A stretch of DNA of 64,000 nucleotides from Chrysomallon squamiferum (taxonomy: Eukaryota > Animalia > Mollusca): positions 14,198,001 to 14,262,000 of the forward strand of contig CM022677.1 of NCBI GenBank assembly GCA_012295275.1. Reading direction: 5' to 3'. The translations under genes and the position numbers were made by a program. Each line of letters opens with the position of its first letter. Position 1 is the first letter of the stretch. Positions 31,250 through 63,497 of the stretch are shown piece by piece. The notes beneath the pieces were generated by a model that was not told where the DNA came from, did not search any database, and worked only from the letters and a program-made list of their open reading frames with translations.

Positions 31250-34200
31250 AAACACAACCATCACCATTGATGGGTACAGAGACGCTCACAGAAATGAGGC
31301 CGCAGTTGCCCAAGTGCAGACACTGTCTGCAGTGGAAATCACCACAGAAACTCAGGCCAATGCTGTTCTCTGGCAAAGTGCGCGAATTGCCAGGGTCCAC
31401 ACACACCACATTACAAAATGTGTCCATCAAATATTACAACAGATGAGAAAACAAAATTCTACGAAACGTTAACAAAAAATGCCCCAAAATCGAACAAAGG
31501 AGGTCAGAATTGCAGAAATACACAAAATTATTGTCTTCCTCCTCATCGAACTGCACAACATCAGAAACAACCAAGAAAACATCACAGACGACTTCAATAA
31601 TCGAAGACAGCTTGGGCTTCAAGATCTCCACAGTCAACAACGACTTAAATTACACACAGACAAGAGAAATCCCACAAACACAAAACAGCAATGAACAAAA
31701 GAAACACCAAACAGTAACAACAACTCAGCAGTCCACAGAGACAAACTCGTACACTTCCTGGCCTCCACTCAAAACACACCAGACGTAATATACATATACA
31801 AGAAACATGGCTAGGACACAATAAAAACAACAAAACAACAAAAGCTTTTAAGGTCCCCGGGTATCAAAGTCTCAGCACCCGGGGAGACATCATGACACTC
31901 GTCAAACAAGACATTCCACACACCAAGCTGAACCAAGCCAAAGTTCACACCAACATAGAAATACTAAGCATCACAGTACACAATAACACTCAAAACATCA
32001 ACACAATTAAAATGTACAGCCCATCCATTCCCGCACTACACACCATTCAAACCCACGACTTAAACAAAATGATCACAACAAACAACAAGCTCTTTATAGT
32101 GGGTGATTTCAACTGTCACAACACCTTATAGGGTGGCTCGACAGACGACAGTCTTGGAATTGTCCTTGAAAATTTCATAGAGCAAAACCAGTGGTGGTCA
32201 ATCCGCCATTGATCCAACATTCACAAAGTAAGGACATCACAGTGCTCTGCGAATGGCAAGTGCTCAATGAATTAAACAGCGACCATCACCAAATACTACA
32301 ACAGCAAGAACACTTTCTTGGACAGATCCATTTTCACATCCAAATGGAACTTCAACAAAGCGAACTGGGAAGGCTTCTACAAAGCATGCAGAAACATCAC
32401 CACATAAACCCCAACCACATCAACACCTACTGCACATCACTCACCAGCACAATATACTCCACTGCAAACAAATTCATACCCAAAACCAGACAATGCACCG
32501 ACAAAATATCCACTCCCTGGTGGATGGAACACATAGAAAAGAAATGCAAAGAAAGAAACAAATTCAGAAGACAATACAAAAAAGACAGAAATCATTCCAC
32601 AGACAAAAATACAAAATAGCAAAAAAACAAGTTTCCAATCTAATTCTCAGTGCAAAACAAGAACACTGGGAACTCTTTTGCAACAACATCGACCACAAAA
32701 CATCAGTCAAAGACATGTGGGCCAAAGTGAAAGACATCCAAGGCAAATAAAACCACAGAATCAACACTCTCGACAAAAACAACATCGCATTCACTGACAA
32801 ACAAAAAGCAGATCTACTCAGTAAAACTTTCACCAAGTCCAGCAGCAACTCAACCTTCCTACTGAAATTCACAAAGAAACCACTGGACAACCTAACAATC
32901 AACAAACATTTCTCAGACACAGAACACTTGAAATACAATCAACTCTTCAACATCAGCGAATTAAATCATGCCCTCAAAAACAAGAAAAGTACAGCCACAG
33001 GGCCAGATAAAATAAGCTACACAATACTACAACACCTACCAGATGAAACACTACTAATCTTACTCGATCTCTACAACACAATATGGACAACAGGTAAGAT
33101 TACAACAAACTGGAAATATGCCGAATGTTTCAGCTTGGCCCAAACCACACAAAGATCACTTACTACCCAACAGCTACAGGCCGATCACACTGACGTCACA
33201 CATGTGCAAAACACTGGAAATGATGTCAACACACACCTGAGCCAGCATCTAAACAACAACAATTTAATCAGCAAGTATCAAAGCAGCTTCAAGAAGAAAC
33301 ACAGTACAAACAACCAGATCACCTGTCTGCAAACAATAATCAACCTATCTTTTAGGAAATCAAAAAAAGTCATCACAGTATTCCTAGACATTGAAAAAGC
33401 CTTTGACATGGTATGGAGGGAAGGACTGCTCATCAAATTAACCAACAACAACATCAAAGGCAACATGTTCAAGTTTATCAAAGACTTTATTAACAACAGA
33501 TCCATAGCAGTCAAAGTAAATGGTCACACCTCAGAGAAAATGACAATCGAAAATGGCATCCCACAAGGATCCGTTATCTCGCCCACACTCTGCAACATCT
33601 ACATCAACGACATCATCACAGCACTTGACAAACAAGACAACACCAACAATCCACCAACCGAACGAAAAAACACAGCACTCTTTGCAGACGACTGCACTTT
33701 TTGGTGTGCAGGCAGAAACAAATACAAAAAGACTTAAACAACATAAACAACTGGGCGTTAAAATGGGGCACAAAGATTTCTCTTTCCAAAACGACATGCC
33801 TCCTTTTCAACAAAAAAACAGATAACAACAAAATCACACTAAACATTAACAACAACGTCATAACACAAACCCAAACATTCAACTTTGGATAAAATATACA
33901 CAATATAATAGAATCCTGCCAAAACATTCTCAATCTTCTAAACCTAATTTCCAGAACCATTTGGGGAGCAAACATGTTGGCATCATCAGCAACGAACTTG
34001 CTGACCATTATGCCAAAGAGTCACTCAGCATTAAAGACGAAGACATCTGAACAGACATACACTACAGGAATAAATGAAATTCTCTCCATCGAAGCCAAAT
34101 ATTAAGACAAACAGTGGCAAAATGAATGGAACAACACCAAAAACAAATGGCACTTGAACATCAAACCACTCACCAAAACCCCCAGAATCACAGTCGCCAA

Positions 34201-34480
34201 CAAACTACACAACAACAATCTCACCATAGGCAGAATTGGTTACTCGACCAACTTAAATACAATCTGATACAAATATCACAACACCACATCACCCAACTGC
34301 AGCTGTGGACTCTCCGAAACCATGAAACACTACTTGTCAAAATTTCGCCAAGGAAAGACAAGCACTACGCAACACATTGGAGGAACTAAGAATCGAGTTC
34401 ACACTCCAAAACATCTTGACACCAAACACGAAAGACAGAGAGTTAGTCCTCGCTGCAGTAACAACATACATTCTGAACAC
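31250..34480 (+). mobile_element. Degenerate non-LTR retrotransposon (I/Jockey group; APE, RT, RNase H remnant)
   Basis: APE motifs IQETWL, VGDFNCHN and SDHH. RT motifs ATGPDKI, FLDIEKAFDMVWREGLL, GIPQGSVISPTL and ALFADD. RNase H-like VGIISNELADHYAK. Many stops and frameshifts. Confidence 0.9.
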
Positions 34481-34681
34481 AAAACACAAACTTTTTTCTT
34501 CTTTTTTGACACAAAAACAAACAACAATTTATTGACTTACAGATTGATCGGTTCAACAGCTGATTGATCCATGGATGGATCAGCTGACTGATGGATCAAT
34601 TTGAATAGCCAATTAAATTAATAATTAAAACAAAAACTAATCGTACTATACCTACTTACATTCAGACCATACTAACCCTGT

Positions 34682-38781: not shown

Positions 38782-39519
38782 ATATTTATTTCACTGAAGG
38801 CAAAACTGAGAGAGCCGCCGCATTTTAAACTGTAGAAAGAAAAAAGAGTCATATGGGACTGTTGTAATACATATATATATATATATATAGATCAGATTAT
38901 TTTGAGAAAATAAATCAACCGATTTCGTGTATAATGGAACACATTAATCTTTCTGAAAAGTAAATTTCATGAAAAATATTTAAAAAAATATATAAAAGTG
39001 CGCATGTCCTCCATGCCATGTGATGATGTGTTCAGGTTACGTGACGACAGCCACCTCGAGGACTGTTAATAGGAACCTGAATGTTCGGGAAACACAGCGG
39101 CGAAACGTGGATGTTACGTTTTCATGTTCGTAAATATCTTCATCAACTTTATACCAAAAATTATTAAAATGTCATACTGTATCGGGATACATCCTTCCCG
39201 AATCGATGTATCGTATCGGGGCCTTTGTATCACAATACGATTCTGTATCGTAGTAATCGTTACAGCTCTGGTGCATACATATTTCTGTGTGTGTGCGTGT
39301 GTGCGTGTCTGTGTGTCTGTGAGAGCGCGTGTTTTTGTGCGTGCGTGCTTTGAAGTAGATGGTCAAACAGGCACTGAAGTATCTAAAAAATATTAATTAA
39401 TATTTATATGCCTTTGTTTCTTCGTTTGTCCTCCGTTTTAAATATTTTATTTGTGAAATCAGATCTAGCGATTTATCCAGGACTAGTTTATGTTATAGTT
39501 GTTGTTAGTATCGTTGCTG

Positions 39520-39747
39520 TTTTAACTCGAAGGTGACTAGCTCCTTCGGGCGTAGCCCGAGCCCTACGGTCATAAGTTAAAAGTACATATTGGCTTTCAA
39601 GGCCAAAAACCAAAAACCATTCGTGTTATACATTGTTTTTTCAATAATAAACAAGAGTTGGGTTGGGATCTATCATGTCCCTAATTCACACCCACGTGGT
39701 CTATTGCGTTATAGTCACGTGATCTCTCGCGCTATAGTACGACTGTT
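39520..39747. repeat. Viral ITR with hairpin core, at the 3' end of molecule B copy 1
   Basis: 39576-39747 is the reverse complement of 42467-42638 (172 nt). The hairpin core cgaagg...ccttcg / cgtag...ctacg is at 39528-39574. Confidence 0.92.
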
Positions 39748-39877
39748 TTACTAAGTTAATAGGATCTATACGTTATAACACGTTTATATATTTAATACAG
39801 ATAACAACGATATATTAAATTTTAAAATTTTATTTAACTTATGATAACATATTTACATAATATTAATGTTTAACAAA

Positions 39878-41997
39878 TTAAATTGGATAAGACCAATCAA
39901 AAGCATTTCCCATGGTTTCGACTGTTCTATCTCCATAGGCACCGTGTAACGGCCATAACTGTCTACGTCTATTTCTACGTTTGTTCCAATTGTCCCATAC
40001 GGGAGCAAAGCATCTCATTTTCCATGTTTTCTGAATTCTTTCTTTGTATTTAGCTTCTTCTTCACCTAGAAACTGATCTTGCTCAGTATGCTTAATGTTA
40101 TCTTTGTTACCCATAGGCGTTGTTTCATTTTTCTTATATATCAGTCCTTGCATGTTACCTGGACAACCTCCTAAACCTATTGGAATGTACTTAGGACACA
40201 TTCCAGTTCTAACGACAAATTCGATCTCACTGTAATAAGTGATCTGAATGTTTGCATGATAATTAAAATACAATGTACTTCCACCTTGTTTTCTCGACAT
40301 CTGGATATAATCCAATTAGAAATATAGGTGGTCTGTTACATTGATACGTACGCCTATGAGAACCATCTTTACATACGTCTACGTTAGGATTATTAGCATT
40401 ATTATGCATAACACCTTGGCTACTTAATTTAGTACCACCATCATCAACCATAGATGGTGCACCAAGTACATTTGATGCTTTATTCTGAAAACACGCTGTA
40501 TAATGTATACGTCTATATTGATGATTGAAATAACAACATATCGCTGTACCCATTGGATGCTGTGTAGTATTAGTAACTATAATATCATGTGTTGGCCAGA
40601 CTTCTAGATTACCTTTGTTTTCATTAGCACATTGATACTTAGATTTCTGACATAAACCAGAAATGTCTGTGAAATTGAGAGTATGAGATATTTCTGATGG
40701 AAATAAGATTAACGGTGAATCCTTGCACGTATAATCTAATGCAAAACCGCCAGCACTAATAACAGTTTCACGATAACCATCGTGTTTTTTTCATATCGTA
40801 TATGTAATTTGGAGAAAGAGCTGTATATTCTACTCCGTCACCTGTCCAAGCATGATTTAACATTTGCATTGCCATATCACTTGGTAAATACAATTTTCTA
40901 TCAGGTTGAACAGGGATACTTCTATTGCTTACATCGTCCATACAGTCTTCGTCTTTAAAATAATAATTATGAGACAACATTAAATTTTTTTTCTGGTAAC
41001 CCATAATCGTTATTTATATCGGTAAACGTCCAAACACGAGCGTTTGGTGGTGCCATAACAGGTACTTCGTTAGGATCTGCTTTGTTATTATTTAAAACGT
41101 GAATAAGCATATTATTTATATTGAAACCTATTCTTTTGATTCTGTATCCCATGAAATCATCAGGTAAATTCCAATCTTCTGGTTTAGTACTGGCGGCTTT
41201 GTACCAATATGGTATAATATGTCCTCCGTGATTAAACGTAAATTCGCATACATTAGGATCACCTATAGCTTTTTCCAATTAACATTATCTGAATTATTGT
41301 CTAATACCTTCATTTCAGCTTTTCTATTTTTGGTAAAATTAATAGTACTTGTAAATGTTCGTTTAAATGTCTTTTTAATCGTAATGTATCTAGGATCCGT
41401 TCCTTTGGTAGTTCCACCAAAACCTTGATATAGAACATTATTACCAGTAGCCGATGCCATTGGAGCACCTTCGACAGCTTCGCTCCCTCCGGTGTCTGTG
41501 ACTTCTTCATTTGCAATGGAATCAGGTTCCATAACAGATTCTTCTGGTTGTAAATATGTACCTCTGGAATTCGATTGTTCCAATACATCTTGCGAAACTA
41601 CGTTGGATAACTGTCTGTTATTAGATCTTTTAGCAGAGCTACCACCGTACGGTTCATCAGATGGTCTCTTCATAGCTTGTTTATCACTATATCCGGACGA
41701 GAACTGCTGATCTCTTTGTCGTTGTACATCATTTGCGAGTATAGCGGGGTCTTTAACGTCGTCTTCGTCCGAATCTTCAATAGCGTTATAGTTTTGCCAA
41801 AGATTTTGAATTGCCTGATAGAAATTTCTATTCGGAACTTGTATATTTGGATACTGACGTCTGACCTGTAACCATTGTTGCTGTCTTTCTCTATAGGGGA
41901 CATTTTGATTAGCTAGCTTGTCGAACAACGTAGCTTTAGCAGCAGCCCAAAGTCTATTTATAGCCTTTCTGCTTAATAATTGTTTTCCTTTAATCAT
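39878..41997 (-). pseudogene. Capsid protein VP-B, copy 1 (full length, four frameshifts)
   Basis: The ORF pieces are collinear with the intact 706-aa VP-A. Frameshifts lie at ~41270, ~40990, ~40790 (T-runs) and ~40287. Minus-strand AATAAA at 39829-39834. Confidence 0.88.
41670..41903 (-). CDS. Overprinted 77-aa ORF in the VP-B N-terminal region (copy 1)
   Basis: ATG start; same length and register as the homologous ORFs at 45316-45549 and 46998-47231. Confidence 0.55.
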   Translation of the reverse strand: MSPIEKDSNNGYRSDVSIQIYKFRIEISIRQFKIFGKTITLLKIRTKTTLKTPLYSQMMYNDKEISSSRPDIVINKL

Positions 41998-42364
41998 GAA
42001 CTCTGATTATGTCTGTTTAAATATGTAACGTTTTCTCCTTCCTCTTCTTCTAACAAATGACGTTCGGCTGGTGTAACGTTTTCGTCAATGTCTTTACCAG
42101 TATCGGTTGATACGAATTCATCAAATTGATTCAAAGCTTTTTCTATTTGATTCTTTGTATAAGTAGAAATTCCTTCCACTGAAGCTTCTACAATAGATTG
42201 ACCAATAGCTGTAGCTGGTTCTAATATGGCACTTTCTGCACCAATCAATTCAGATATATGGCAGGAGCTGTAGATTCTAATATAGCGTTTGTAGCTAAAC
42301 CAACTGATGCATCAAATGCGTACTCTATTATCTCTGTAGCTATAATGCCTAACGCAGTGAACAT
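41994..42364 (-). pseudogene. Small upstream ORF (ORF-X of B), copy 1, with a +2 (AT) frameshift near 42257
   Basis: Nearly identical to the intact 46539-46907 apart from atatat vs atat. Confidence 0.8.
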
Positions 42365-42466
42365 GCTATCTCATCGAACGTTTATGATGGAATGATGTTA
42401 ATATTTGAAAACATAACGATATCTGCATTTATACCGGATATGACATCATATACTATATTTAAATAT

Positions 42467-42663
42467 AACAGTCGTACTATAGCGCGAGAGATCACGTGAC
42501 TATAACGCAATAGACCACGTGGGTGTGAATTAGGGACATGATAGATCCCAACCCAACTCTTGTTTATTATTGAAAAAACAATGTATAACACGAATGGTTT
42601 TTGGTTTTTGGCCTTGAAAGCCAATATGTACTTTTAACCCGAAGGTGACTAGCTCCTTCGGGC
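42467..42663. repeat. Viral ITR with partial hairpin, at the 5' end of molecule B copy 1
   Basis: Inverted copy of 39576-39747, followed by the first hairpin ear and then a junction into the Rep fragment. Confidence 0.92.
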
Positions 42664-43319
42664 ACCGGATGTATCGAAAAAGTCATTAAGTATGTTTAAA
42701 ATATCGGCATCATTATCGTGAATCTCTTTTTCCATCTCATTCCAGATATTAAGCATGGCTTGATCTGTTGTTCCTAAAATTGTTTTTCTGAATCATTCAT
42801 CAAATATTTCATATAGTCTTGAAGTGATGTTCTTTGTGGGTCTTTAAGTTTCATGATTTTCAAATAGCCATTTTCATTTAATGTAGCACGATGTAAACGG
42901 CGATACTGCCTGTCTTGTGACGGTGTTTTCAATGTAGTTTTCCAGATTATATGACAGTGTGTTCCATATGTCGGATGGTTGCTTATAGCTTCACACTCTT
43001 TTTGATGGTAAACCATTAACGTTTTCCATGACTTATTTCTAAGAAATGCTTTTAGTTCATTAATAACACGATCCTGTCCCTTAGATAAGTATTCATAATT
43101 GGGCGTGGCCCAATGATCCACTGTTTTGTCCAATATTTCCTGATTGTCCATCTGATACGATTTAATGAAATTTTTCCCCATTGCATAAATGAATTTTCCT
43201 TCTTTGTCTTTTGCAAGACAACGGGGAACTAAATATTTTGGGTGGACCATGTCATAGTTAACATGGCCAACCAAAACGCTGTAGTATGTTTCTTCAGGTA
43301 AGTCAACGAATCTGTCCAT
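42664..43319 (-). pseudogene. Parvovirus-like Rep/NS1, N-terminal HUH endonuclease domain only (3' truncated)
   Basis: HUH motif II GTHCHIIW and motif III-like DYMKYLMND. One extra T at ~42778 would continue the frame as KQFLGTTDQAMLNIW...FFDTSGA up to the hairpin junction. No SF3 helicase motifs are present. Confidence 0.78.
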
Positions 43320-43403
43320 ATTTATTGTCGTTAAAGTCTATGTTGTTTTGTATATCTATATCGGAAGAGATAAAAGTAACAACTGAACGTTTTTGAACGT
43401 CTC

Positions 43404-43450
43404 TTTATTTATAACGTTAAAAATATGACGTAATACATATGACGTAATAC
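43404..43450 (-). promoter_or_regulatory. VP-A/Rep intergenic signals: overlapping TATAAA and AATAAA, plus a tandem 14-mer with CRE-like TGACGTAA
   Basis: The minus strand reads GTTATAAATAAAG at 43403-43415. atatgacgtaatac occurs twice at 43423-43450. Confidence 0.55.
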
Positions 43451-43522
43451 GGTGTACGTGACAAATTAAACGTAATATTTTGAACAGACTATTTACTGTA
43501 TTCATACGCGTACAAATATTAT

Positions 43523-45643
43523 TTACAATGGATATGACCAATCAAAAGCATTACCCATAACTTCCAAGGTTCTATCTCCATATGCACCATGTACTGGCCA
43601 TAATTGTCTACGTCTATTTCGTCTTTTATTCCAATTATCCCATACTGGTGCAAAACATCGCATTTGCCATGTTTTCTGAATTCTATCTTTATATTTAGCT
43701 TCATCTTCATCTAAAAATTGATCTTGATCTGTATGTTTTATGTTATCTTTATTTCCCATTGGTCTTGTTTCATCTGGTTTATATATTAAACCTTGCATAT
43801 TACCTGGACAGCCCCCTAACCCTATTGGAATGTATTTAGGACACATTCCCGTTCTAACTATAAATTCGATCTCACTATAATATGTAATTTGAATATTTGC
43901 ATGATAATTAAAAAATAATGTATTACCACCACTTGTTTTCTCAATATCAGGATATAAACCTATCAGAAATATAGGCGGTCTATTACATTGATATGTACGT
44001 CTATGTGAACCGTCTTTACAAGCGTCTACGTTAGGATTGTTAGCATTATTATGCATAACACCTTGGCTACTTAATTTAGTACCACCATCATCAACCATAG
44101 ATGGTGCACCAAGTACATTTGATGCCTTATTTTGAAAACATGCTGTATAATGTATACGTCTGTATTGATGATTAAAATAACAACAGATCGCTGTGCCCAT
44201 AGGATGTTCTGTAGAATTAGTTAATATTATATCCTGTGTTGGCCATACTTCTAAATTACCTTTATTTTCATTAGCACATTGATATTTCGTTTTTTGACAT
44301 AATCCAGATACATCCGTAAAATTAACTCTGTGTGATGTTTCAGATGGAAATAATACAGTAGGTGAATCTTTACATGTATAATCTAATGCGAAACCACCAG
44401 CACTAATAACCGTCTCACGATACCCATCATGTTTTTTCATATCATAAATATAATTAGGAGACTCAGCAGTGTATTTTAATCCGTCTTTCTTCCATGCATG
44501 ATTTAATATTTGCATGGCCATATCACTAGGTAAATATAATTTGCGATCAGGCTGAATAGGTATACTTCTATTGCTTACACTGTCCATGCATTCTTCATCT
44601 CTAAAATAATGATTATGAGATAAATTTAAATTTTTTTCTGGAAGACCATAATCATTATTTATATCTGTAAATGTCCAGACTCTAGAATTAGGAGGTGCCA
44701 TTACAGGGACCTCATTAGGATCAGCTTTATTATTATTCAACACATGAATAATCATATTATTAATGTTAAAACCTATTTTTTTCACTCTATAGCCCATAAA
44801 ATCATCAGGTAAATTCCAATCATCCGGTTTAGTACTGGCAGCTTTATACCAATATGGTATAATATGTCCTCCGTGATTGAATGTAAATTCACAAACATTT
44901 GGGTCACCAATAGCTTTTTTCCAATTTACATTATCTGAATTATTATCTAATACTTGCATTTCAGCCTTTCTGGTTTTAGTAAAATTAATAGTACTAGTAA
45001 ACGTTCGTTTAAATGTTTTTTTGATCGTTATGTAACGTGGATCAGCAGCTTTAGTTGTTCCACCAAAACCTTGATATAAAACATTATTACCAGTTGCAGA
45101 TGCCATAGGTGCACCTTCTACGGCTTCGCTCCCTCCAGTATCAGTAACTTCTTCATTCATTATGGAATCCGGTTCCATAACAGATTCTTGAGGTTGTAAA
45201 TATGTACCTTTAGCATTTGATCTGTCCAGGACATCTTGTGATACCGTAGTAGATAACTGATTATTATTTGGAACCTTCGCATCAGATCGACCTGACGGTT
45301 CATCTGAATGTCTTTTCATAGTTGATTTATTTTGATCTCCGGATGTGTCGTATATATCTCCTGGTTGTTCCGAGTTGTCGTAGAATAAAGGGGTCCCGAA
45401 AGGGTCGTCTTCGTCCGAATCTTCAATAGAGTTATAGTTTTGCCCAATATTTTGAATTGCCTGATAGAAATCGTTATTCGGAATTTGTATATTTGGATAC
45501 TGACGTCTGATCTGAAGCCACTTTTCTTGTCGTTTTGAATAGGGGACATTTAGATCTCCTAATATATTAAACGCTTTTGACTTTGCAATAGCCCAAAGTC
45601 GAGTGACTTCTTTCTTCGTCAAAAGTCTTTTTCCTTTTGTCAT
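43523..45643 (-). CDS. Parvovirus-like capsid protein VP-A, 706 aa, intact, no PLA2 motif
   Basis: Gly-containing N-terminal segment followed by jelly-roll-like blocks HIIPYWY, GYRVKKIGFNINNM and RVWTFTDINNDYGLP in parvoviral VP order. Basic KRRNRRR near the C-terminus. Adjacent to HUH Rep and hairpin. Confidence 0.85.
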   Translation of the reverse strand: MTKGKRLLTKKEVTRLWAIAKSKAFNILGDLNVPYSKRQEKWLQIRRQYPNIQIPNNDFYQAIQNIGQNYNSIEDSDEDDPFGTPLFYDNSEQPGDIYDTSGDQNKSTMKRHSDEPSGRSDAKVPNNNQLSTTVSQDVLDRSNAKGTYLQPQESVMEPDSIMNEEVTDTGGSEAVEGAPMASATGNNVLYQGFGGTTKAADPRYITIKKTFKRTFTSTINFTKTRKAEMQVLDNNSDNVNWKKAIGDPNVCEFTFNHGGHIIPYWYKAASTKPDDWNLPDDFMGYRVKKIGFNINNMIIHVLNNNKADPNEVPVMAPPNSRVWTFTDINNDYGLPEKNLNLSHNHYFRDEECMDSVSNRSIPIQPDRKLYLPSDMAMQILNHAWKKDGLKYTAESPNYIYDMKKHDGYRETVISAGGFALDYTCKDSPTVLFPSETSHRVNFTDVSGLCQKTKYQCANENKGNLEVWPTQDIILTNSTEHPMGTAICCYFNHQYRRIHYTACFQNKASNVLGAPSMVDDGGTKLSSQGVMHNNANNPNVDACKDGSHRRTYQCNRPPIFLIGLYPDIEKTSGGNTLFFNYHANIQITYYSEIEFIVRTGMCPKYIPIGLGGCPGNMQGLIYKPDETRPMGNKDNIKHTDQDQFLDEDEAKYKDRIQKTWQMRCFAPVWDNWNKRRNRRRQLWPVHGAYGDRTLEVMGNAFDWSYPL
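45316..45549 (-). CDS. Overprinted 77-aa ORF in the VP-A N-terminal region
   Basis: ATG start. The core RSDVSIQIYKFRI.ISIRQFKI.GKTITLLKIRTKTTL is conserved with the B version, and the stop overlaps the internal MKR start. Confidence 0.55.
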   Translation of the reverse strand: MSPIQNDKKSGFRSDVSIQIYKFRITISIRQFKILGKTITLLKIRTKTTLSGPLYSTTTRNNQEIYTTHPEIKINQL

Positions 45644-46005
45644 GAAATCGGTATACGATTATATATATATGATACGTTTTCGTCTTCCTCAGCCTCTAAT
45701 TGGCTACGTTCAATTGATGTGACGTTATTATCTATATCTTTTCCTTCAGGTTTAATATAATTCCCTAATTCTCGTACTGCCTCTTGAATCTGATTTTTTG
45801 TATAATCAGAAATTCCTTCAACAGCAGATTCAACAATAGATGTTCCTATATTTATAGCAGGATCTAATAAAACACTATCAGCTCCTATTACTTCTGTAAT
45901 GGCTGGTGCTGTAGATTCTAATATTGCTGATGTAGCAATTTCTACAGAGGCATCGAATGCGTATTCGATTATTTCAGTTGCAATTAAACCTAATGCAGTG
46001 AACAT
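45640..46005 (-). CDS. Small acidic ORF-X of molecule A, 121 aa
   Basis: First ATG ORF after the terminus and TATA-rich region. Homologous to the 122-aa ORF of B, with an ATGA overlap with the VP start. Confidence 0.8.
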   Translation of the reverse strand: MFTALGLIATEIIEYAFDASVEIATSAILESTAPAITEVIGADSVLLDPAINIGTSIVESAVEGISDYTKNQIQEAVRELGNYIKPEGKDIDNNVTSIERSQLEAEEDENVSYIYNRIPIS

Positions 46006-46110
46006 GCTATCATAACAAATAAATAAGTATAAATGATATAAATGTATATGTGTTATATTATATATAATAAATACAGGAAGTGACGTAGAATGTCACGTAA
46101 CATGATAATT

Positions 46111-46370
46111 GGGACCTGATAGATCCCAACCCAACTCTTGTTTATTATTGAAAAAACAATGTATAACACGAATGGTTTTTGGTTTTTGTACTGAAAGCCA
46201 ATATGTACTTTTAACTCGAAGGTGACTAGCTCCTTCGGGCGTAGCCCGAGCCCTACGGTCATAAGTTAAAAGTACATATTGGCTTTCAAGGCCAAAAACC
46301 AAAAACCATTCGTGTTATACATTGTTTTTTCAATAATAAACAAGAGTTGGGTTGGGATCTATCATGTCCC
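46111..46370. repeat. Palindromic head-to-head junction: ~106-nt stem arms around a 47-nt two-eared (T/Y-shaped) hairpin core
   Basis: 46111-46216 pairs with 46264-46370. Ears are CGAAGG/CCTTCG (46217-46237) and CGTAG/CTACG (46240-46257). Confidence 0.93.
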
Positions 46371-46538
46371 TAATTCACACCCACGTGGTCTATTGCGTTA
46401 TAGTCACGTGATCTCTCGCGCTATAGTACGACTGTTATATTTAAATATAGTATATGATGTCATATCCGGTATAAATGCAGATATCGTTATGTTTTCAAAT
46501 ATTAACATCATTCCATCATAAACGTTCGATGAGATAGC

Positions 46539-46907
46539 ATGTTCACTGCGTTAGGCATTATAGCTACAGAGATAATAGAGTACGCATTTGATGCATCAGT
46601 TGGTTTAGCTACAAACGCTATATTAGAATCTACAGCTCCTGCCATATCTGAATTGATTGGTGCAGAAAGTGCCATATTAGAACCAGCTACAGCTATTGGT
46701 CAATCTATTGTAGAAGCTTCAGTGGAAGGAATTTCTACTTATACAAAGAATCAAATAGAAGAAGCTTTGAATCAATTTGATGAATTCGTATCAACCGATA
46801 CTGGTAAAGACATTGACGAAAACGTTACACCAGCCGAACGTCATTTGTTAGAAGAAGAGGAAGGAGAAAACGTTACATATTTAAACAGACATAATCAGAG
46901 TTCATGA
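46539..46907 (+). CDS. Small acidic ORF-X of molecule B, 122 aa, intact
   Basis: TATAAA at 46470, homology to 45640-46005, and an ATGA overlap with VP-B at 46904-46907. Confidence 0.8.
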   Translation: MFTALGIIATEIIEYAFDASVGLATNAILESTAPAISELIGAESAILEPATAIGQSIVEASVEGISTYTKNQIEEALNQFDEFVSTDTGKDIDENVTPAERHLLEEEEGENVTYLNRHNQSS

Positions 46908-48190
46908 TTAAAGGAAAACAATTATTAAGCAGAAAGGCTATAAATAGACTTTGGGCTGCTGCTAAAGCTACGTTGTTCGACAAGCTAGCTGATCAAAATG
47001 TCCCCTATAGAGAAAGACAGCAACAATGGTTACAGGTCAGACGTCAGTATCCAAATATACAAGTTCCGAATAGAAATTTCTATCAGGCAATTCAAAATCT
47101 TTGGCAAAACTATAACGCTATTGAAGATTCGGACGAAGACGACGTTAAAGACCCCGCTATACTCGCAAATGATGTACAACGACAAAGAGATCAGCAATTC
47201 TCGTCCGGATATAGTGATAAACAAGCTATGAAGAGACCATCTGATGAACCGTACGGTGGTAGCTCTGCTAAAAGATCTAATAACAGACAGTTATCCAACG
47301 TAGTTTCGCAAGATGTATTGGAACAATCGAATTCCAGAGGTACATATTTACAACCAGAAGAATCTGTTATGGAACCTGATTCCATTGCAAATGAAGAAGT
47401 CACAGACACCGGAGGGAGCGAAGCTGTCGAAGGTGCTCCAATGGCATCGGCTACTGGTAATAATGTTCTATATCAAGGTTTTGGTGGAACTACCAAAGGA
47501 ACGGATCCTAGATACATTACGATTAAAAAGACATTTAAACGAACATTTACAAGTACTATTAATTTTACCAAAAATAGAAAAGCTGAAATGAAGGTATTAG
47601 ACAATAATTCAGATAATGTTAATTGGAAAAAAGCTATAGGTGATCCTAATGTATGCGAATTTACGTTTAATCACGGAGGACATATTATACCATATTGGTA
47701 CAAAGCCGCCGTTACTAAACCAGAAGATTGGAATTTACCTGATAATTTCATGGGATACAGAATCAAAAGAATAGGTTTCAATATAAATAATATGCTTATT
47801 CACGTTTTAAATAATAACAAAGCAGATCCTAACGAAGTACCTGTTATGGCACCACCAAACGCTCGTGTTTGGACGTTTACCGATATAAATAACGATTATG
47901 GGTTACCAGAAAAAAATTTAATGTTGTCTCATAATTATTATTTTAAAGACGAAGACTGTATGGACGATGTAAGCAATAGAAGTATCCCTGTTCAACCTGA
48001 TAGAAAATTGTATTTACCAAGTGATATGGCAATGCAAATGTTAAATCATGCTTGGACAGGTGACGGAGTAGAATATACAGCTCTTTCTCCAAATTACATA
48101 TACGATATGAAAAAACACGATGGTTATCGTGAAACTGTTATTAGCTGTATCTTGACGCATTTTGGATGCAGGGAAAGGAATCAGAGATGA
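46904..48190 (+). CDS. Capsid VP-B copy 2, open frame but truncated at 48144 and running 14 codons into host DNA
   Basis: Matches copy 1 up to gaaactgttattag (48144), then continues into unrelated sequence. Confidence 0.85.
   Translation: MIKGKQLLSRKAINRLWAAAKATLFDKLADQNVPYRERQQQWLQVRRQYPNIQVPNRNFYQAIQNLWQNYNAIEDSDEDDVKDPAILANDVQRQRDQQFSSGYSDKQAMKRPSDEPYGGSSAKRSNNRQLSNVVSQDVLEQSNSRGTYLQPEESVMEPDSIANEEVTDTGGSEAVEGAPMASATGNNVLYQGFGGTTKGTDPRYITIKKTFKRTFTSTINFTKNRKAEMKVLDNNSDNVNWKKAIGDPNVCEFTFNHGGHIIPYWYKAAVTKPEDWNLPDNFMGYRIKRIGFNINNMLIHVLNNNKADPNEVPVMAPPNARVWTFTDINNDYGLPEKNLMLSHNYYFKDEDCMDDVSNRSIPVQPDRKLYLPSDMAMQMLNHAWTGDGVEYTALSPNYIYDMKKHDGYRETVISCILTHFGCRERNQR
46998..47231 (+). CDS. Overprinted 77-aa ORF in VP-B copy 2
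   Basis: As for the other two copies; its TGA overlaps the ATG at 47228. Confidence 0.55.
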   Translation: MSPIEKDSNNGYRSDVSIQIYKFRIEISIRQFKIFGKTITLLKIRTKTTLKTPLYSQMMYNDKEISNSRPDIVINKL

Positions 48191-54250: not shown

Positions 54251-56417
54251 CTGAACGAATCTGATTCTCTTTGGCCTGCTCCCTAAACTGGGAATCGAGG
54301 TTTTGAAAATCTCGTCTAAGCTGTTCATAGCTACTCAAAACTACAGCATCACTTTACTTAAAAAATCAATTTAAAGATTTATGAAAACCGCTAAATTCTA
54401 TCTTACTAGACTTCAATGACCACAAAAGAGAAGATAATTTGACATATCGTTTAATTGTCTGAAATTAACATGTTTTTAGTTATTTATTTCTCCAAAAGCT
54501 CCATATTAACTTATAAACTATTATTCACTGGAATATAAAATAATATTTTACACAATCCCAAAGTACAGGTAGTCCTGAAGAAATTTTACCAATGGTTATA
54601 ACATACATGAACTTAACTTAATATTACTGAATTTTTAATTACATAAACATGTTATTATTTTTTTTTTTTTGTTATTCGTTTGAAAAAAAATGTAAATGTT
54701 CTTGGATCAATTTGGATCAATTTAGTAACCCTCTTCAGTTGGGAATCTCGTGACGTCAATCATGTAGTCTCAAATAATCGTCAACATCAAATTCTTTCTC
54801 TATGCCTGGTCACGTGAGTCCATTGGCCGTCTTTCACTTAATTTCTAAATGTCCGGGTTCAGTCCTAATTGACTTAAAATCCCACTTCTGACGCGAGAAT
54901 GTAACTGGGCGGTGAGGGGAAGCAAGCGGATCTCTTAGCTAGCTGTTCGTATAATATATATTCGTAATATATATGACTGTCTAAACAAAGGGCTTTATTA
55001 TTAGGTAATTTCTGCTATAACAATGTTAACATTTACAATATGGTAACTGTGGCATTTCAAGGAGGAGAAAACAGATTCATAAAACAAATCATAATAAAAA
55101 TTCTAGAGTTGGAGAACAAAAAAAAAAAAACATGAAGCCAGTACGAAAAAACCCAAAAGAACACAAAACAAACAACACCAGTGTCGCCACCTTCTAGTAG
55201 AAGTTTAAGGTCCTGCAGTGTCCAAGACCTAAGTGCAATCTTTGCTGTCCAGGCAGGCTGCAATTGCCCATATGACCGACCACGACCATACAGATGCCAC
55301 TTCTACTGGTAACGAAAGCTCCCAATAGGAGGCAGTCATCTTAATCTATCTTGGTAGCACTTACTTTTAAACCGATGAAGTTGTCCTCAAAGTACTCAAG
55401 TATTTGTAATACAGAGTTATGGTCATCAGCTTCTGATAGCGCTTCAAAAGCTGCAGTCACTTCATGCACTGGAACGAATGCAAAATCTTCATCAATTTCT
55501 TCATAACAACGAACTAGACTAATGAGTTAAACTTGGCGCCAGATGAAAGAAGCATCCAGACACAGTTCAGTTTAGCTTTACAAGCGTGTTGTCTTCTTCC
55601 TTCACACTCGTAAGAAGTCACTGCACCACTGAGTTCCTTCTGTCGGACATACACATAGTTTTCGAACGCAAGTTTTGGATGACCATACTCTGACGCTATG
55701 ACCTTATGTACTGTCTCATTCGTCTTAATTATTGATCAGTTGCCAAATCAAAGGAATCTTTAGCATTTAATTAACCTGAATTAGTAATTAGCTGACTTTC
55801 ATTAGCTTTGGTGTTAGATGATTTTTAATAATGTTTGCAGATTTTAACAGATCAAAGTAATCCAAATGCCCTGATCAATGTTTCAGCAGACGAATTTTGC
55901 TTTTTAGCAGCAGATTTCAAAGTAATCCAAATGCCTCTGATCAAGTTCAATTAGTAATTAGCTGACTCTAGGTAGTTTTGACGAATTTATTGGAATGTTG
56001 CTTTTAAAAATAACTTTGAAATGGTATATTTGAAGAAAAATGAGGGCAGTTGTCCTTAGGGGCAGTGTCCAGGGGCAATTGACCTGATACCATAAAAAAA
56101 GCTGTTCATGAATGTAAATGAACTTGCTTTAGAAATTCTGATAATGATGATTTCAGAGTTGACTTTGGTAATTAGTGTTATTAAACAGTGTTTTAAAGAC
56201 AAGAATCATTTTGAAAGGGGAAACTTTTCAAATTTTGATAATTGTTTTTCATTTGTTTAGATATTCTTAATAAATATCCCAAAACATCCATGTTTGAAGC
56301 TTGTTGCCAACGGTGAACAAATCATGAATGTGCTAGGAGACTTATTACCACTGTGAAAGTAAATCATTACTCAGTAAGGAAACATTATATAATTATAAAC
56401 ATAAGCGCTAACAGGTT

Positions 56418-58284
56418 TTACATGTGAACTGTCATGTTATTTAAAACTGACTGATTACCTGACAACAATACTGAGTAGCGCGTGCGCAATACTTCCAGAT
56501 GGATATCCGGACTGAGAGTCAGATGTTTGGATTCGCATCTTCTGAAAAGTGTAAACGTTTTTCCATGTACACCATTCAGGTTCTCCATGACGCCGAACAC
56601 GCTGGAGCTGTCCACCATGATGCTGTCGCTGTCTGTGTTTGCCCTCGTCGACGTACATTGATCGGAATGTGGCAAATGGAAATCCCTTACTGGACTGTTT
56701 AAATATGAGATCAGAAACAACGAGTTCCGTTCTGTCCACTTTCGAAATCAACGTCAGCTTTGCTTTTTCTCCATTTCTGTAAAGAATCTTCAGCTCTCGT
56801 TTATCGACGTCGATATCCACTTGATCAATGGGAGCAGCAGGTCTGATCAGGTCAACATCACATGTTCCAACCACAACTGATGTTCCAAACGGAATCCAGT
56901 CTAATCCTGCAGGAGGGAGGGGCAGCAGGCGTACGTTTCCATCTTGATAGATAACAAGTGTCTCACTGTAACCCTCTGACCAAGGAACTGGAAGAATTAT
57001 TTTAAAATAGTCTACTTTTCTATAAAGCTTGTCAGTATTTTTTACATATACTTTCATGGTTTCCGGATTTCTCCACCAAAAGTCTATATCAACACCTGTA
57101 ACAGTGAACTCGTTACTGGTGTATATAGGAAAATATTTTTCAGGTTTCATAGGTTTTCTTTCCAATTTTATTTCTTCCATACAAATGGAAAATACATCCT
57201 GTGCGGATAATGAAATTTTGATCAGATTTACGTTGTGTTCGATCCAAGAAAGGTTTGGGATTTTCCAATCGACGTTAGTTTTCCCGGGTTGTAAACCAGT
57301 TTCTTTGAGCGCAATTAAATTTTTGTTTCTGTCTCTGTATGAAACCTGTAATTTTACAAATGATGTCACTGGTTTGATTTTTAGACTGAAGACTGACCCA
57401 ATATCAGCATCTATGTAACCTTCTGATCTTCCTTTTAACCGGAATGAAATTTCAATTACGGCTATTTTCGATGTGTTAGGTAATGGATATACTTTCAAAG
57501 TTGCAGAATTGGAAAATAAATGATTATTTGTTTTATTCAAACAGAGGTGGGTAAAACTCCAGTAGACAGGAGACAAAGCAACACAGTCAGTATTATTTGG
57601 TTCTCTTCTGTTTACAAAAGCTTTATACACTGGTAGAGTAGCTATTAGTTTGTACTGTTTCACGCTGTCGAGGTATACTGGTATTTTGACGTTGTCCTCT
57701 TCCGCACATTTAGATGGGTAACTTTTCTGTCTAAGTTCAGCATTTTTGTCAACATTAATTTGAGGAGAAGAGTTCAGATGGGGCAGATCACTCGTACAGT
57801 GAAGTTTACACTGCAGCATGTCCTGCGCGAGACTGCTGTCATCAATATCTAGACTGACTGTGTTCAGTTCCACTCCATCAGATCCGTGAACCTGGAGCTT
57901 TAAAATATACCAACCTCTTTCCAGAATTACTGATCCTTTCATCTCGGTACTGGAATGAAAAACATTCCAGTTATCTCCAGCTGTTTCTGGTGATATGGTG
58001 ACAATGGATCCCATTTTCTTCTGGTTTAAAACTGCTGTGATGACTTCAGCATCGTTGCCATTGGAGTATCGTAAACTGGAGATTTTTACCGAGCTTGTTT
58101 TCTTCAGACAGAAGTAAAAATTAATGATTTCGTAGCCTGTTAAAAACACTACCTTCTTTGACAAAGCGTTTGATCGAAAATGTATTCGGTGTTTATCTCG
58201 AACCTCGGAGGCTGGTAATGGGTGAATGTTGCCCAGACATAATCTGCAGAACGCTAAAAGTAGAACGGTCTTCACAACATACAT
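56418..58284 (-). CDS. Second copy of the 621-aa secreted protein, with a +1 frameshift near 56639 (real or sequencing error)
   Basis: The true ATG is at 58284. About 14 aa differ from copy 1. gagggcaaacac replaces gagggcaacac, and the downstream frame stays intact to the same stop. Confidence 0.82.
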
Positions 58285-60456
58285 TTTTCCAAAGTTTGAA
58301 AAATAGTTACGTATGATTCTTAGATAAGAAGACACAACAGGGCCCGGCTGCTGCAGCTGAGCTGGTTTATACACGTTTGACGTCACTGTACTAATCGGTC
58401 TCCAGTCAGCGTTATGACTCCGTCGTTAAAAGAACTTGTCTGAAAGATCGTAATTTAATGTCAGCTGTTAACCTTGGTTATATTTAGTTTTATAAACTAA
58501 ATTTTATAATTAAATTCTTTAGCATAATAATATATACATACATACATAATATTACAGACACCAAACACACACACACATACACACACACACTCACATATAT
58601 ACTGGATAGACTACAAACATAAACAGATTATATACATAAATATACATACACGGGCACATGAACAAAAACATACACATCCCCCACTTTCATACATACAGTC
58701 ATAAAATACACAATCCCACATGCATGTGCTAATATGCAAACATAAAGACATATACACAGTCATGTTTTAAACTTGTCACGTACTCATTCACATAGACAGA
58801 CATATACACACCAGCAATAACTTATCTTCACGCATGATACATACACACAATATGCAAACACAGACTAACTCATACGTGTACATTGAGACACACACACACA
58901 CACACACACGCACATCTTCATTTTCTCTCAAATCATGCCCGATTTGTACCAAATGCTTAATTTTTATCAATTTTAACAATATTTACTTAAGAAGGTAAAC
59001 AAGCTATCAAAAGTACATTTTTTTTTCTTCTCCTTAATTCCACAATTTACTGACTTTGTTTTTTCTTTATAACAATTTAACATTTTACAAGTCTGAATTC
59101 ACTATTAATTACAAAGTGAATCAAAATGTAACTGAAAGAATAAAAATATAAATTATAGTATAAACTAATCGTAAGAAAGGAAATAAAAAAACTATTTCTG
59201 GATGGTTTGCAGATGAAATTATAAACAGGATCTCTTTTCTGTAAGTGAAAGTTTAATTATTTTTCTCTTTGTATTATTTTCTGAGTAAAACATAATCTAT
59301 GAAGAAGTTAATTTTATTTCTTTATAAAATAAAAGTATCAAAAATGAGGCTTATTTTAAGAAAAAATATATATATGTGTCACACATTATAATATAACTAA
59401 ACAAAATAAAATAAAAGTTTATAAACCTCTGGCATATTTTCTGTCTATATGTATAAATTTATATTTTATATACATGCTACATTATATATATAATATATTT
59501 TAAAAAAGAACAATAGTAAACTGTACACATCATGGACTAGCAAAAAAACTGTATAAAAAATATATATATACTATAAGAAAAAACTATTTTGTGTACAAAC
59601 GTTTCATTTCTTTTTTTAGTTTTTAATATCCAAAATTGTATCACCTCACATAAACTCCTGCAAACAAACACAAACACACACATACACATGAACTCACACA
59701 CCAACAACTGAAAGAAAAAGCATATTAAAAATAATTCTTTTTCTTGTACAAACATACATACAGAAAAATTAACTATAATCTAAACTAAAATTATAATCTC
59801 TTTCAAATAATTTATTATTTTTTATTATTAAACAATTATACATTATGGAGGATTTTAATGATTTTTCTAAATCACTGTTACATATATAAATATATATAAT
59901 CTTGATAGAGAATTAAGCAAAATATTTATTAATAAAAAAAAAAAAAACAAAAAAAAAAACTTTTTCCAGCACTAAATAAAACTTGGTTTTGGTACATTGT
60001 GCTATTTTCGGTAACTCGATATATTATATATTTGTTTTGTTTTTACATATACATACGTCTGGTTTAGACAAGTGTCCTGTGTACCCAGTTTCATGTGATA
60101 AATAGTAAAAAGTATACAATTACTATACCCTGCTAAACTAATAAATATTTCTCAAGCAAAATATGTAGACAAAGCTAGTGAACATAAAGAAACAAGATAA
60201 TATCTTTAAAAAAAATGTTTGTTAAATAATCTGTTTACAAATATTGGCGCAAAAACAAAAAATAATAATAATAATTAAAAAATAAATAAATAAATAAATA
60301 AATAGAGGCAATTATAAAAAAAAAAAAAAAAAAACCAAGAGTAATAAAACAGAGCAAGATTCTTTTTTATTTTTTCTTGGAGATAGTCCTGCAGTTTATA
60401 TCATAGATTAAACTGATGTATTATTCTAATCAGATTATCAGAATAATGGAATGTTG

Positions 60457-60517
<61 letters not shown>

Positions 60518-61724
60518 AAACTATACTCTTAAAGCGTCCAGGATTAATAGATAAAAAAAATAAAACAAATGTCTGTCATGGAAATAGTGACTCCAGGTTA
60601 TGAATTAAATTAAATAAAGTCCTGTAGGAAATACTAGGTAAATGAAATAATGTTTGATTTAAGGAACTAAACAGAATGATCAGCATCAAACAGAATAATT
60701 AGTAATTCAGAGGTTTGTATACTGTTGAACTTGAATAATCAATGATTCTGCTGTATTTATATTATTAGGTAAATGTATATGAAAGAGAGAGAGAGTAATA
60801 TTTTGATATAAGGAAAACAAAGATTAGTAAAAAAAAAACCTAGTATGGGCACAAAATCAGACACTTTTATATATTATTTTCAGTATAATTTAAAATATTT
60901 ATATATAAATATAGTTTATTAACAAAACCAAGAATTTAGTGTTTAATATACACATCATTATAAACAAATTATATGATGAACATCTATTGTACAGATAGAT
61001 CACATTAGACAATCTACTGATATATACTGTAGCTCAAAATATTCGGACGCTCTTTTTGCGATGGATTCTCAAAACCTTTAAGAAAATAGAAGATACTCCA
61101 GGAAGAGGAAGACAAGGATCCTGTATCACATACATGGTGAAGAAACTCTTACCTTATTAAATTATCAGTTTCAGCAGGTGAAGTGATTTTAAAAGATTTT
61201 AAGATCGCGAGTTTCCATCAGTTTGTTTACGAAACTTCCAGCTACTTTGTATGCTTTGTATAGGAACGCCAGTAACACTGTCTTCACAGCGCATAACTGA
61301 CGTCACAAAACTGACAAACACAACAACACCAAAAAACAAAAAAATGAAAAGTCGGACTCGATTGAAATGTTGTTCCACAAAACGTTTTGCCTCAGCAGGA
61401 TCAGTTACGAGCGATTTCTTTTCTCTTCTTTTCTTTTTATTGCAAATAATCAATTTTATTGACCTAATTCAAACAACATTCAAATTTTAATATTTTAAAC
61501 ACGATGTCAGGTGCCCCGAATCATTAGTTTAACCATCTGACTGGTTAAACAATGTAGATTTATTGAATTATTTATTGAATTATTAATTTAAAAACAGAAT
61601 AACTTAAATATTATTTTCTAAAGAGATATTGTAATTTTTTTTTTTTTTTTTTTGTCTTTTTATCTTTGCTAACAATACATTTTATATATTCAGCGTATCA
61701 CTCGTATTTCTTTCACTTGTTCAT

Positions 61725-61812
<88 letters not shown>

Positions 61813-62419
61813 ACATCCTTTCAAAAAAATACCATACAAATTCTATGACTATCTGTTTTAGTAATTTTTCTTGTTAATTGAAAGATTTTATTTATTTCAG
61901 GCAACTGAGTTTTACTACCAGACTTTGAACATACACTTGTTATTCAGATGTTATAATTACAAATGTTTATATTTTTTAAATAAATATAATTAAAGAGTTG
62001 TACTTTGCAGAATGACTTGGCGACACGTTGTCAAATAACGCGAGTTCCTTCTCTTCCTTATAAAAGCCCGAATATTTGTTTGTTAAGGATACGACAGACA
62101 CGCCCGCTGACCTGTCAGAAAGTGTGTCTGTCGTATACGTGCCTCACAACAGCTCGCCCTGATTAGCAAGTTAAATTTTTCCATTTCCATTTGTTCAGGC
62201 ACAGCGAGTTGTGTTTTCTTTACCAACGAAATTACTGTTCGGGATAGCAGTTGAAAATACGCTTCTCTCTGTGTGTGTGTGTGTGTGTATGTGTGTTTTG
62301 TTACCTTTTATTGTTATTTCTTCCTTTTCATCTTTTTTTTAATTTTTTTTTAATTTTGCTTTTATTGGTCTCTACTATTTTAAAAGATAATTGTCCTGGG
62401 TTGTATTTTTATATGTGTT

Positions 62420-63180
62420 TCACTGAGCAGACTGTAGTTTTTTCCTGTATAAAGGTTTGCATCGAAATGGGAAACTCTTGGCAGCTGAACAGGTTCGAGT
62501 GATTTATATTGACACAATACGAGGCAGCAGGGATCTGTATTTTAACGAGCATACATTTCGCGTAAATAAAAATAATGGGTAGAGAACAGACTGGAAATGT
62601 GTTGTTAACTCGCAGTGCAGAACCTACGTCGTGTCTGTGGACAACATGTTGCAGACGGCAGAACAGATGCAGCAACAACCACGCGGCCGTGCCATTCCAA
62701 TACATCCAAGAAAACTGCCATGAATAGGATTTCATTCCGCTCCTAGGACGTCAGATGACACTGAGAGATCTGCTCACAACGCTGCACGCGCTGTATTCCT
62801 CACCACACGACTCAGTCGTTTTTAGTTCCCAGTACACTCAAAGTATTTGGCGTCGTTCGCAAAACTAGGATTGGCTTCAGAATATATTGAAAACAGCGAT
62901 GTACAAAAGTCGTGCTTCAGCCCTTCCGATGATCCCGCTGAACAAAGTTGAGGATGTTTTGACACAGTTGCCGACAGTCACCAGCATGAAAAGGTAACAG
63001 TGCTGATAGACTACGTCACTAACACCTGGATGAAAGGGACGTGGACTCCAGAAATGTAGAAAAACTTTGGCAATGACGGTCTCCGAACAAATAACCACTT
63101 GGAAGGATGGCGCCATGAACTCAATCAAATCGCCCAGAAGAGTCATCCGACCACATCGAGAACTTTTGTATTTCAACTGC
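62420..63180 (+). pseudogene. MULE transposase remnant (mirror of 8040-8800)
   Basis: RTNNHLEGWRHELNQIAQKSHP on the plus strand. Confidence 0.65.
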
Positions 63181-63318
63181 GAACTGTTACTGCTTACAAA
63201 TGCATTGTGGTACAGAAGTAGTTCGTTGGAACCTTTTGACTGCACACAATGACAACCAGGTAAAAGGGAATTTAATGAGTACCGAGACGTAGGTAGATCC
63301 TAATTAGTACACAATTTG

Positions 63319-63497
63319 TTCTACGTCCCAAAGATACAGTGTCAGATATATTAACATGAAATCCCGCGAAGTAGAATTCATTTTAGCACCATTTATACCA
63401 GTTTTTCTACGTGTCAAAGATACAGTGACAGATATATTAACAACAAATCCCGCGACGTACAATTCATTTTAGCACCATTTATACCAGTTTTTCTACG
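63319..63497. repeat. ~86-bp tandem duplication, single-copy in the left arm
   Basis: caaagatacagtg.cagatatattaaca..aaatcccgcga.gta.aattcattttagcaccatttataccagtttttctacgt occurs twice. Confidence 0.85.

Follow-up and report, generated by a model that had tools for sequence, protein, structure and literature searches.

The genome of the mollusc Chrysomallon squamiferum contains, within a stretch of 64,000 nucleotides (nt) that we call the window (assembly GCA_012295275.1, contig CM022677.1, positions 14,198,001 to 14,262,000), an intronless and gene-dense element at positions 39520-48144. It comprises the probable remains of two different parvovirus-like molecules, called A and B in the following. 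The surrounding window is AT-rich and microsatellite-rich, as is typical of animal genomes; the GC content is 0.35 in the element and 0.26 and 0.32 in its 5-kb flanks. Self-BLAST and lists of open reading frames (ORFs) give the order host, hairpin core, first copy of B (B1), partial core, A, complete core, second copy of B (B2), host. The single features are listed here (ITR, inverted terminal repeat; VP, predicted capsid protein; NS1, replication protein; PLA2, phospholipase A2).

39520-39575, no strand: left host junction and hairpin core at the 3' end of B1, with a two-armed, Y/T-like predicted fold
39576-39750, no strand: 3' ITR of B1, 175 nt (a stem of about 110 nt common with A plus a B-specific part), 99.4% inverted match to 42464-42638
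39751-39877, minus strand: 3' untranslated stretch of B with AATAAA, without homology to the A spacer and without NS1 remnant
39878-41997, minus strand: VP-B copy 1, full span, in ORF pieces with about four frame breaks in the assembly used
41994-42364, minus strand: X' copy 1, one frame break
42464-42638, no strand: 5' ITR of B1 (self-BLAST)
42632-42663, no strand: partial hairpin core joined to mid-NS1, an illegitimate junction bridged by contigs of runs X1 and X3
42664-43319, minus strand: N-terminal nuclease region of the NS1 of A (181-residue open frame at 42774-43319, one frame break, then truncation)
43320-43522, minus strand: VP-NS1 spacer of A, with CRE-like motifs and a TATA box that overlaps AATAAA, predicted to act as promoter of NS1 and poly(A) signal of VP
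43523-45643, minus strand: VP-A, intact ORF of 706 residues, predicted capsid protein, without PLA2 motif
45316-45549, minus strand: overprinted +1 ORF Y, 77 residues, in the N-terminal part of VP-A (codon-position pattern, p = 1.4e-9)
45640-46005, minus strand: ORF X of A, 121 residues, stop overlapping the VP start (dN/dS 0.14 against X')
46107-46216, no strand: 5' terminal stem of A with two AAAAACCA repeats (self-BLAST, A/B alignment)
46216-46264, no strand: complete hairpin core at which A and B2 are linked head to head (fold with short flanking stem, z -4.9)
46265-46439, no strand: 5' ITR of B2 (self-BLAST)
46539-46907, plus strand: X' copy 2, intact, 122 residues (ORF list)
46904-48144, plus strand: VP-B copy 2, 413 open codons, cut at the right host junction (ORF list, self-BLAST)
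46998-47231, plus strand: overprinted ORF Y', 77 residues, same start and stop as Y of A, 54 of 77 residues identical

A spans 42664-46216 on the minus strand; its surviving part of 3.55 kb ends in a cut, and the far end is absent from the locus. Starting at its telomere, A carries X, VP-A, a spacer of 203 nt and the N-terminus of NS1, all on one strand. B carries X', VP-B, a tail of 127 nt with AATAAA, and the ITR. B1 (39576-42638, minus strand, 3,063 nt) is whole, with a 175-nt ITR at both ends, and B2 (46265-48144, plus strand) is cut at the right host junction, position 48144. The two copies differ by 6 mismatches and 5 gap columns in 1884, and the copy ratio of B to A within the locus is 2:1. 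An earlier note on this DNA, made from the letters, had proposed two different molecules, A with X, VP and Rep and B with X' and VP-B. Self-BLAST and ORF lists bear out both the molecules and their positions, and the gene content has to be amended in two points: B occurs twice, and only the N-terminus of Rep (NS1) remains. Inspection of both flanks by eye showed no target-site duplication. At or near several of the frame-break sites, short-read contigs differ in length from the window; some of the breaks possibly stem from the assembly, and the insert is perhaps of lower age and less damaged than it seems.

The terminal stems of A and B are identical in 107 of 112 columns, a score reached by none of 200 shuffles, and identity falls from 0.96 in the stem to about 0.56 in the adjoining block of 100 columns. 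This agrees with the earlier description of a common stem of about 106 nt with abrupt divergence further inward. The ITR of B1 (175 nt) exceeds the stem common to both molecules by 69 nt. Two AAAAACCA repeats in the stem (e.g. 39604-39621) may correspond to the ACCA repeats bound by protoparvovirus NS1. The core next to B alone (39520-39575) and the core between A and B (46216-46264) show one mismatch in 231 nt including flanks (compared with 46209-46439). The hairpin core that the earlier note assigned to both molecules was indeed found beside B and between A and B; a separate copy of A's own core is absent from the locus, so that for A itself we infer the sharing. Together with a short flanking stem, the core folds into a two-armed hairpin (z -4.9, 200 shuffles), and the inner 49 nt alone give z -1.8. 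With the ITRs of B1 and this two-armed core, the locus has the hairpin telomeres of a linear parvoviral genome. A and B2 are joined at one complete core. An A arm and a B arm that meet at a single core cannot be the outcome of self-dimerisation, and recombination between co-resident molecules is therefore likely. Genomes of adeno-associated virus (AAV) vectors with common ITRs concatemerise in any orientation (PMC5733846). Those are engineered vectors, whereas A and B are a natural pair.

The map of B equals that of A minus the spacer and NS1. Seven NS1 relatives gave no tblastn match on B1 or B2, and the 127-nt tail aligned with the A spacer no better than chance (97/200 shuffles), a comparison of weak power with 127 AT-rich nt. 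B thus combines its own predicted capsid gene, the lack of a replication gene and the cis origin of the putative helper, as is characteristic of a capsid-encoding satellite.

The two capsid genes diverged considerably. Between VP-A and VP-B2 (413 codons) the synonymous divergence (dS) is 0.87 and the ratio of nonsynonymous to synonymous divergence (dN/dS) is 0.16 (95% interval 0.12-0.23), falling to 0.068 in codons 181-413. Amino acid identity is 56% in codons 1-130 and 90% in codons 181-413. Over the A/B comparisons, dS of VP ranges from 0.7 to 0.9; two open stretches of the VP of B1, taken as they stand, gave dN/dS values of 0.059 and 0.113, and X against X' has a dS of 1.5 with dN/dS 0.14. 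Purifying selection on both capsid cassettes before integration is supported by these values, as the earlier note had supposed when it described VPs unlike at the N-terminus with a conserved core and many synonymous changes. VP-A and VP-B form a clade of their own (100/100) apart from the relatives in ENA, from which it follows that the duplication leading to A and B is later than that split. An identical run of 86 nt between VP-A and VP-B, at about 44040-44125 and in its B1 counterpart (next longest 32 nt), may go back to viral recombination between A and B, to gene conversion or to a polishing artefact.

Third-position identity has its maximum at VP codons 30-79 (8 of 2000 permutations), because a +1 ORF of 77 residues, Y, is common to A and B in this region. 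Substitutions at VP codon positions 1, 2 and 3 number 33, 13 and 14 in the overlap with Y, versus 19, 10 and 82 in the core (chi-square p = 1.4e-9). In the Y frame, the proportions of synonymous (pS) and nonsynonymous (pN) differences are 0.49 and 0.19, and over the overlap in the VP frame pS is 0.22 and pN 0.27. The evidence for Y is this substitution pattern and not the stop-free frame, since a stop-free stretch by itself arises fairly often (in 609 and 247 of 3000 codon-randomised trials). Y is an overprinted gene of 77 residues, kept in both A and B, which the earlier note had overlooked. No Pfam match below E 0.049 was obtained for it. Y sits where MAAP sits in AAV, a small alternative-frame gene over the capsid N-terminal region (PMC8568889), with no shown homology between the two.

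In A, VP lies upstream of NS1 on the same strand. All parvoviruses are described as having NS on the left and VP on the right, or an ambisense arrangement (PMC11357303), which differs from the one-strand order telomere-X-VP-NS1 of A. The spacer at 43320-43522 contains no telomere remnant, its TATA box and AATAAA overlap compactly, and it is crossed by single short-read contigs in all four runs compared. The VP-NS1 join may nevertheless have been made at integration, just behind the VP stop, since the runs may all carry the same insert; searches with the locus gave no relatives in IMG/VR or JGI metagenomes from which to read the gene order. More generally, the VP-NS1 order or the link between A and B could be a by-product of integration or assembly, for example through the re-joining of an ambisense parent behind the VP stop, through duplication in the host or through palindromes joined wrongly. 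The locus contains at least one illegitimate junction (42663/42664), short-read contigs cannot cross the repeated stems, and the 86-nt identical run is possibly a polishing artefact. However, a dS near 0.9 with strong purifying selection is impossible for the host-side duplication of so young an insert (6 differing sites in 1884 between B1 and B2), and duplication of one VP in the host was rejected on the high dS. As A, B and the VP-NS1 spacer also occur in all four runs, and the compact spacer lacks a telomere remnant, we hold such a by-product to be very improbable.

The NS1 ORF in the window carries the motifs HxH (HCH) and YLxxDxEK (YLMNDSEK), the HUH nuclease motifs expected of parvoviral NS1, and H125, H127 and Y172 are invariant in 26 alignment rows. 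The superfamily 3 (SF3) helicase is cut off in the window. Among 1.84 billion representatives, 35 relatives of the NS1 piece were found; of the 29 scanned, 27 score above the cut-off for Parvo_NS1 and have the SF3 helicase. The profile of 26 rows matches AAV Rep (E 2e-12), while the piece itself gave no significant Pfam family and nothing relevant in a PDB sequence search. The nearest relatives, P0014 (60%) and P0015 (43%), are shorter or cut; most of the listed full-length relatives have 930-1120 residues. Many of the relatives are found on Logan contigs measuring 6.0-7.5 kb (at most 7,535 nt), a contig not being equal to a genome. Names were found for 0 of 18 and 0 of 16 cluster members among the NS1 relatives (P0015-P0066). 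With Parvo_NS1 in 27 of the 29 relatives scanned, the parvovirus-like origin put forward earlier is supported.

Language-model (ESM) features of VP-A score 0.92-0.90 to parvoviral capsid clusters (VP1_2) with 191 of 256 shared, at a recognition value of 1560, below the mark of 2300. From these features, from the position of the gene and from the strand pattern in two low-confidence models, VP-A is predicted to be a capsid protein. The AlphaFold2 models, built on shallow alignments of 8 and 13 rows, reach a mean predicted local distance difference test (pLDDT) of 30 and 27. The sole confidently modelled part is residues 7-69 of VP-A (pLDDT about 80), predicted as a small helical N-terminal domain that ORF Y overlaps. 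Foldseek of the VP models against PDB and BFVD gave no matches at E<=0.001, parvoviral capsids at ranks 2 and 4 in BFVD (E 0.3-0.4) being a lead only, and VIA-align gave none with Z>=5. VP and X matched no significant Pfam family, and neither VP-A nor its profile found anything relevant among PDB sequences. Relatives of VP-A were found in ENA only, at 49-62% identity; a third VP lineage (P0059 and P0060) lies on an ENA contig of 559,615 nt. The ESM search with ORF X was empty at 0.9. The hydrophobic, acidic N-terminus of ORF X may resemble the membrane-penetration peptide of a minor capsid protein (polyomavirus VP2). A PLA2 in VP or X was rejected: one YxGxG-like word and no HDxxY were found, and PDB matches to PLA2 (E 0.27) were taken as chance.

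Window words were listed for 11 sequencing runs, with at least half of them in 6 and small shares in X7-X9; none of the listed runs is an RNA library. Contigs of four runs (X1-X4, X1 possibly being the window's own sample) were placed on 39400-46400, which leaves most of B2 outside. All 30 bins of this range are covered in each of the four runs, so that A and B co-occur across the libraries compared. The depth of long near-identical contigs, which is no copy number, is 47-55, 32-37, 6-13 and 7-10 over A in the four runs (86 over X in X1) and 100-129, 79-94, 20-21 and 14 over the duplicated part of B; these depths fit one A and two B, roughly 1:2. The partial-core/NS1 junction (42663/42664) is bridged in X1 and X3, where the shorter side has 55 letters, misses the bridging rule by one letter in X4, and is not among the matches listed for X2. 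In all four runs the depth of contigs over the left flank (39400-39520) is high, and there is a loose end at 39521; this flank may be a multi-copy host repeat or an empty site. Variant termini and a high summed depth over the VP N-terminus were observed as well, and the host carries a family of related, diverged inserts elsewhere. Furthermore, 13 members of the VP cluster P0001 fall on four contigs in ENA, assigned by equal length only, with at least 3, 3, 1 and 2 VP copies (by overlap; at least 9 in total) versus 1, 2, 1 and 0 NS1 N-termini found. The VP copies are of several variants with 91-99% identity, and their excess is a weak parallel to the VP excess at the locus.

In parvoviruses, rolling-hairpin replication is driven by NS1, which nicks the terminal origin. 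The explanation we prefer, and to which we give an even chance, is that A is a helper genome and B a capsid-encoding satellite copied by A. A is likely self-sufficient, with a capsid cassette (X, VP and the overprinted Y) upstream of NS1. It would supply NS1, and B, keeping its own X', VP and Y', would have retained the stem for replication in trans. Recognition of the stem by the NS1 of A and rolling-hairpin replication would apply to both members of the pair, and 107 of 112 identical stem columns beside a dS of 0.7-0.9 in VP and 1.5 in X are expected if one NS1 serves both. B would then be a long-lived lineage and not a one-off deletion; a defective copy of A itself was rejected, as near-identity to A would be expected. 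The closure of B1 by 175-nt ITRs, its short 3' end bearing AATAAA and the lack of a detectable spacer or NS1 remnant support a satellite. Purifying selection on X', VP and Y' in B, the meeting of A and B2 at one complete core and the roughly double share of B in the locus and in contig depth point in the same direction, as does, weakly, the VP excess on the ENA contigs. A and B may have co-infected one germ-line cell and been joined through their common termini before or during integration, and the concatemer would have integrated with broken ends. Of the two options in the earlier note, a segmented virus or a helper with its satellite, we thus retain the latter, whereas a division of genes between segments does not agree with an A that has both VP and NS1.

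Several observations weigh against this explanation. One locus cannot date the loss of NS1 in B, the whole signal of selection could stem from a monopartite parent, and the map of B would equally result if one deletion had removed everything between the VP stop and a point past the NS1 stop. Capsid identity is predicted from a language-model score of 0.92 at low recognition. In X2, the depth of 78 over single-copy B1 against 32-37 over A is unexplained by the locus as assembled. At the bridged 42663/42664 junction the left side consists of the shared telomere only, and no contig among those listed bridges the junction A-core-B2. Each run has 94-103 contigs at only 90-95% likeness, about a third or more of the contigs, with variants at about 92% of both A-like and B-like stretches. 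In three of the four runs a contig fits the NS1 stretch in part and continues with 255 unlike letters; this contig may reflect a second NS1 or a further junction. Finally, the VP excess on the ENA contigs is fragile on account of the matching by equal length and of broken NS1 pieces in other clusters (P0039).

The partly fitting NS1 contig is the main support for a different origin of B, with which the several more diverged lineages in the host runs also agree. B would here be defective and derived from a second, related monopartite virus (B*, with about 80% identity to A) that lost NS1 by one deletion shortly before integration. A and B* would have co-infected the cell, and similar origins are typical of relatives. 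The map of B as that of A without spacer and NS1 agrees with this, related VP variants of 91-99% in ENA make mixed infections seem common, and integrated densovirus concatemers are known (PMC6880638). However, co-infection and a deletion with both ends in short windows are needed, without a spacer remnant (97/200 shuffles, weak power), and the parent itself is absent from the locus where its derivative is present twice. We regard this origin as a real, lesser possibility.

A segmented parvovirus exists, namely Acheta domesticus segmented densovirus (AdSDV), with NS and VP on separate 3.3-kb segments of identical corresponding termini (PMC10267136). Two molecules with matching termini (here 107/112, at the sole surviving end of A) and a molecule of about 3.3 kb without NS1 resemble it. 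AdSDV differs, as far as described there, in having a single capsid gene as well as a PLA2 ORF and in lacking ITRs, whereas here A has both cassettes and B has ITRs and a paralogous VP without PLA2 motif. An NS/VP split of the AdSDV type was rejected, since A holds both cassettes and NS1 relatives occur on contigs whose size would accommodate a complete monopartite genome. Satellite viruses with a capsid gene of their own, such as satellite tobacco necrosis virus, likewise have no replicase and are replicated by a helper. Their capsids are not known to be related to those of the helpers, whereas B would have a capsid closely paralogous to that of its helper, and it retains the entire cassette. 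The Drosophila Vesanto virus is a multi-component, bidna-like single-stranded DNA virus with up to twelve segments and PolB homologues (PMC8363768); it has similar ITRs and homologous segments, possibly optional, satellite or reassorting, and an NS1 is mentioned for it elsewhere (10.1101/2023.07.29.551099). A true multipartite virus of this kind, with B as a segment, either obligate or reassorting, that supplies a second capsid paralogue (for mosaic capsids or a second tropism) and with possible further segments, could account for the common stems with abrupt inner divergence, as in segmented viruses. ITR-bearing segments with homologous genes occur in Vesanto virus (PMC8363768), and one contig of run X3 has a loose end at 42531 with a third sequence adjoining the stem. 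However, A already has X, VP, Y and NS1, B brings no new gene type, many NS1 relatives lie on contigs of 6-7.5 kb, and the loose end at 42531 may be the missing far end of A. ORF lists of the element contain no PolB-sized ORF (other molecules could lie elsewhere), and no sequence link between the element and Vesanto virus was found. A multipartite virus seems quite improbable to us.

In size and organisation, the Swazi bat-associated megaparvoviruses come to mind, with the order PLA2 ORF, ORF of unknown function, NS1, VP, an NS1 of 561-611 residues and about 6.4 kb, called the largest known (PMC13426907). They are likewise large, likely homotelomeric, atypically organised and derived from metagenomes and endogenous copies. 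By their description in this source, NS1 precedes VP, whereas here VP comes first, most listed relatives have an NS1 of 930-1120 residues, and contigs reach 7,535 nt. Parvoviridae are almost all monopartite, with about 4-6 kb, and A is cut at 3.55 kb with relatives on contigs of up to 7,535 nt. A phrase search of open-licence literature found no description of a capsid-only parvovirus satellite or of a VP-before-NS1 order, a weak negative on which subscription papers or supplements may bear. The element would work like a parvovirus; its formal membership is tentative, with a gene order unlike that of the family and, for VP, a single jelly-roll fold of a T=1 capsid that is putative.

Outside the element, a large inverted host duplication (about 6800-16500 and 54800-63800, 90-99%) lies around it and carries an intronless ORF of 621 residues (12880-14745) without Pfam family, the 609-residue copy having a different C-terminus. 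At 17426-18870 and 32344-34567 there are fragments possibly resembling a hAT-type transposase and a reverse transcriptase of long interspersed nuclear elements (LINE).

Regardless of the satellite question, the locus points to an unnamed parvovirus-like lineage with reversed gene order and an overprinted gene, whose relatives lie on contigs exceeding the largest genome described in PMC13426907. A helper/satellite partnership would be unusual for parvoviruses. That a large (6-7.5 kb) lineage with VP before NS1 routinely carries ITR-flanked satellites or segments without NS1, each bearing a paralogous capsid cassette and repeatedly spun off from the helper as natural intermediates to segmentation, is a wider proposal that we consider rather unlikely. 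On the way to multipartite single-stranded DNA genomes, the intermediate to be expected is a gene-deleted molecule that persists next to a complete helper; the only segmented parvovirus that our literature search turned up shows the end state. If the satellite explanation is true, B, as a partner with the capsid cassette alone, 20% diverged in its coding sequence and conserved in its origin, would represent this intermediate.

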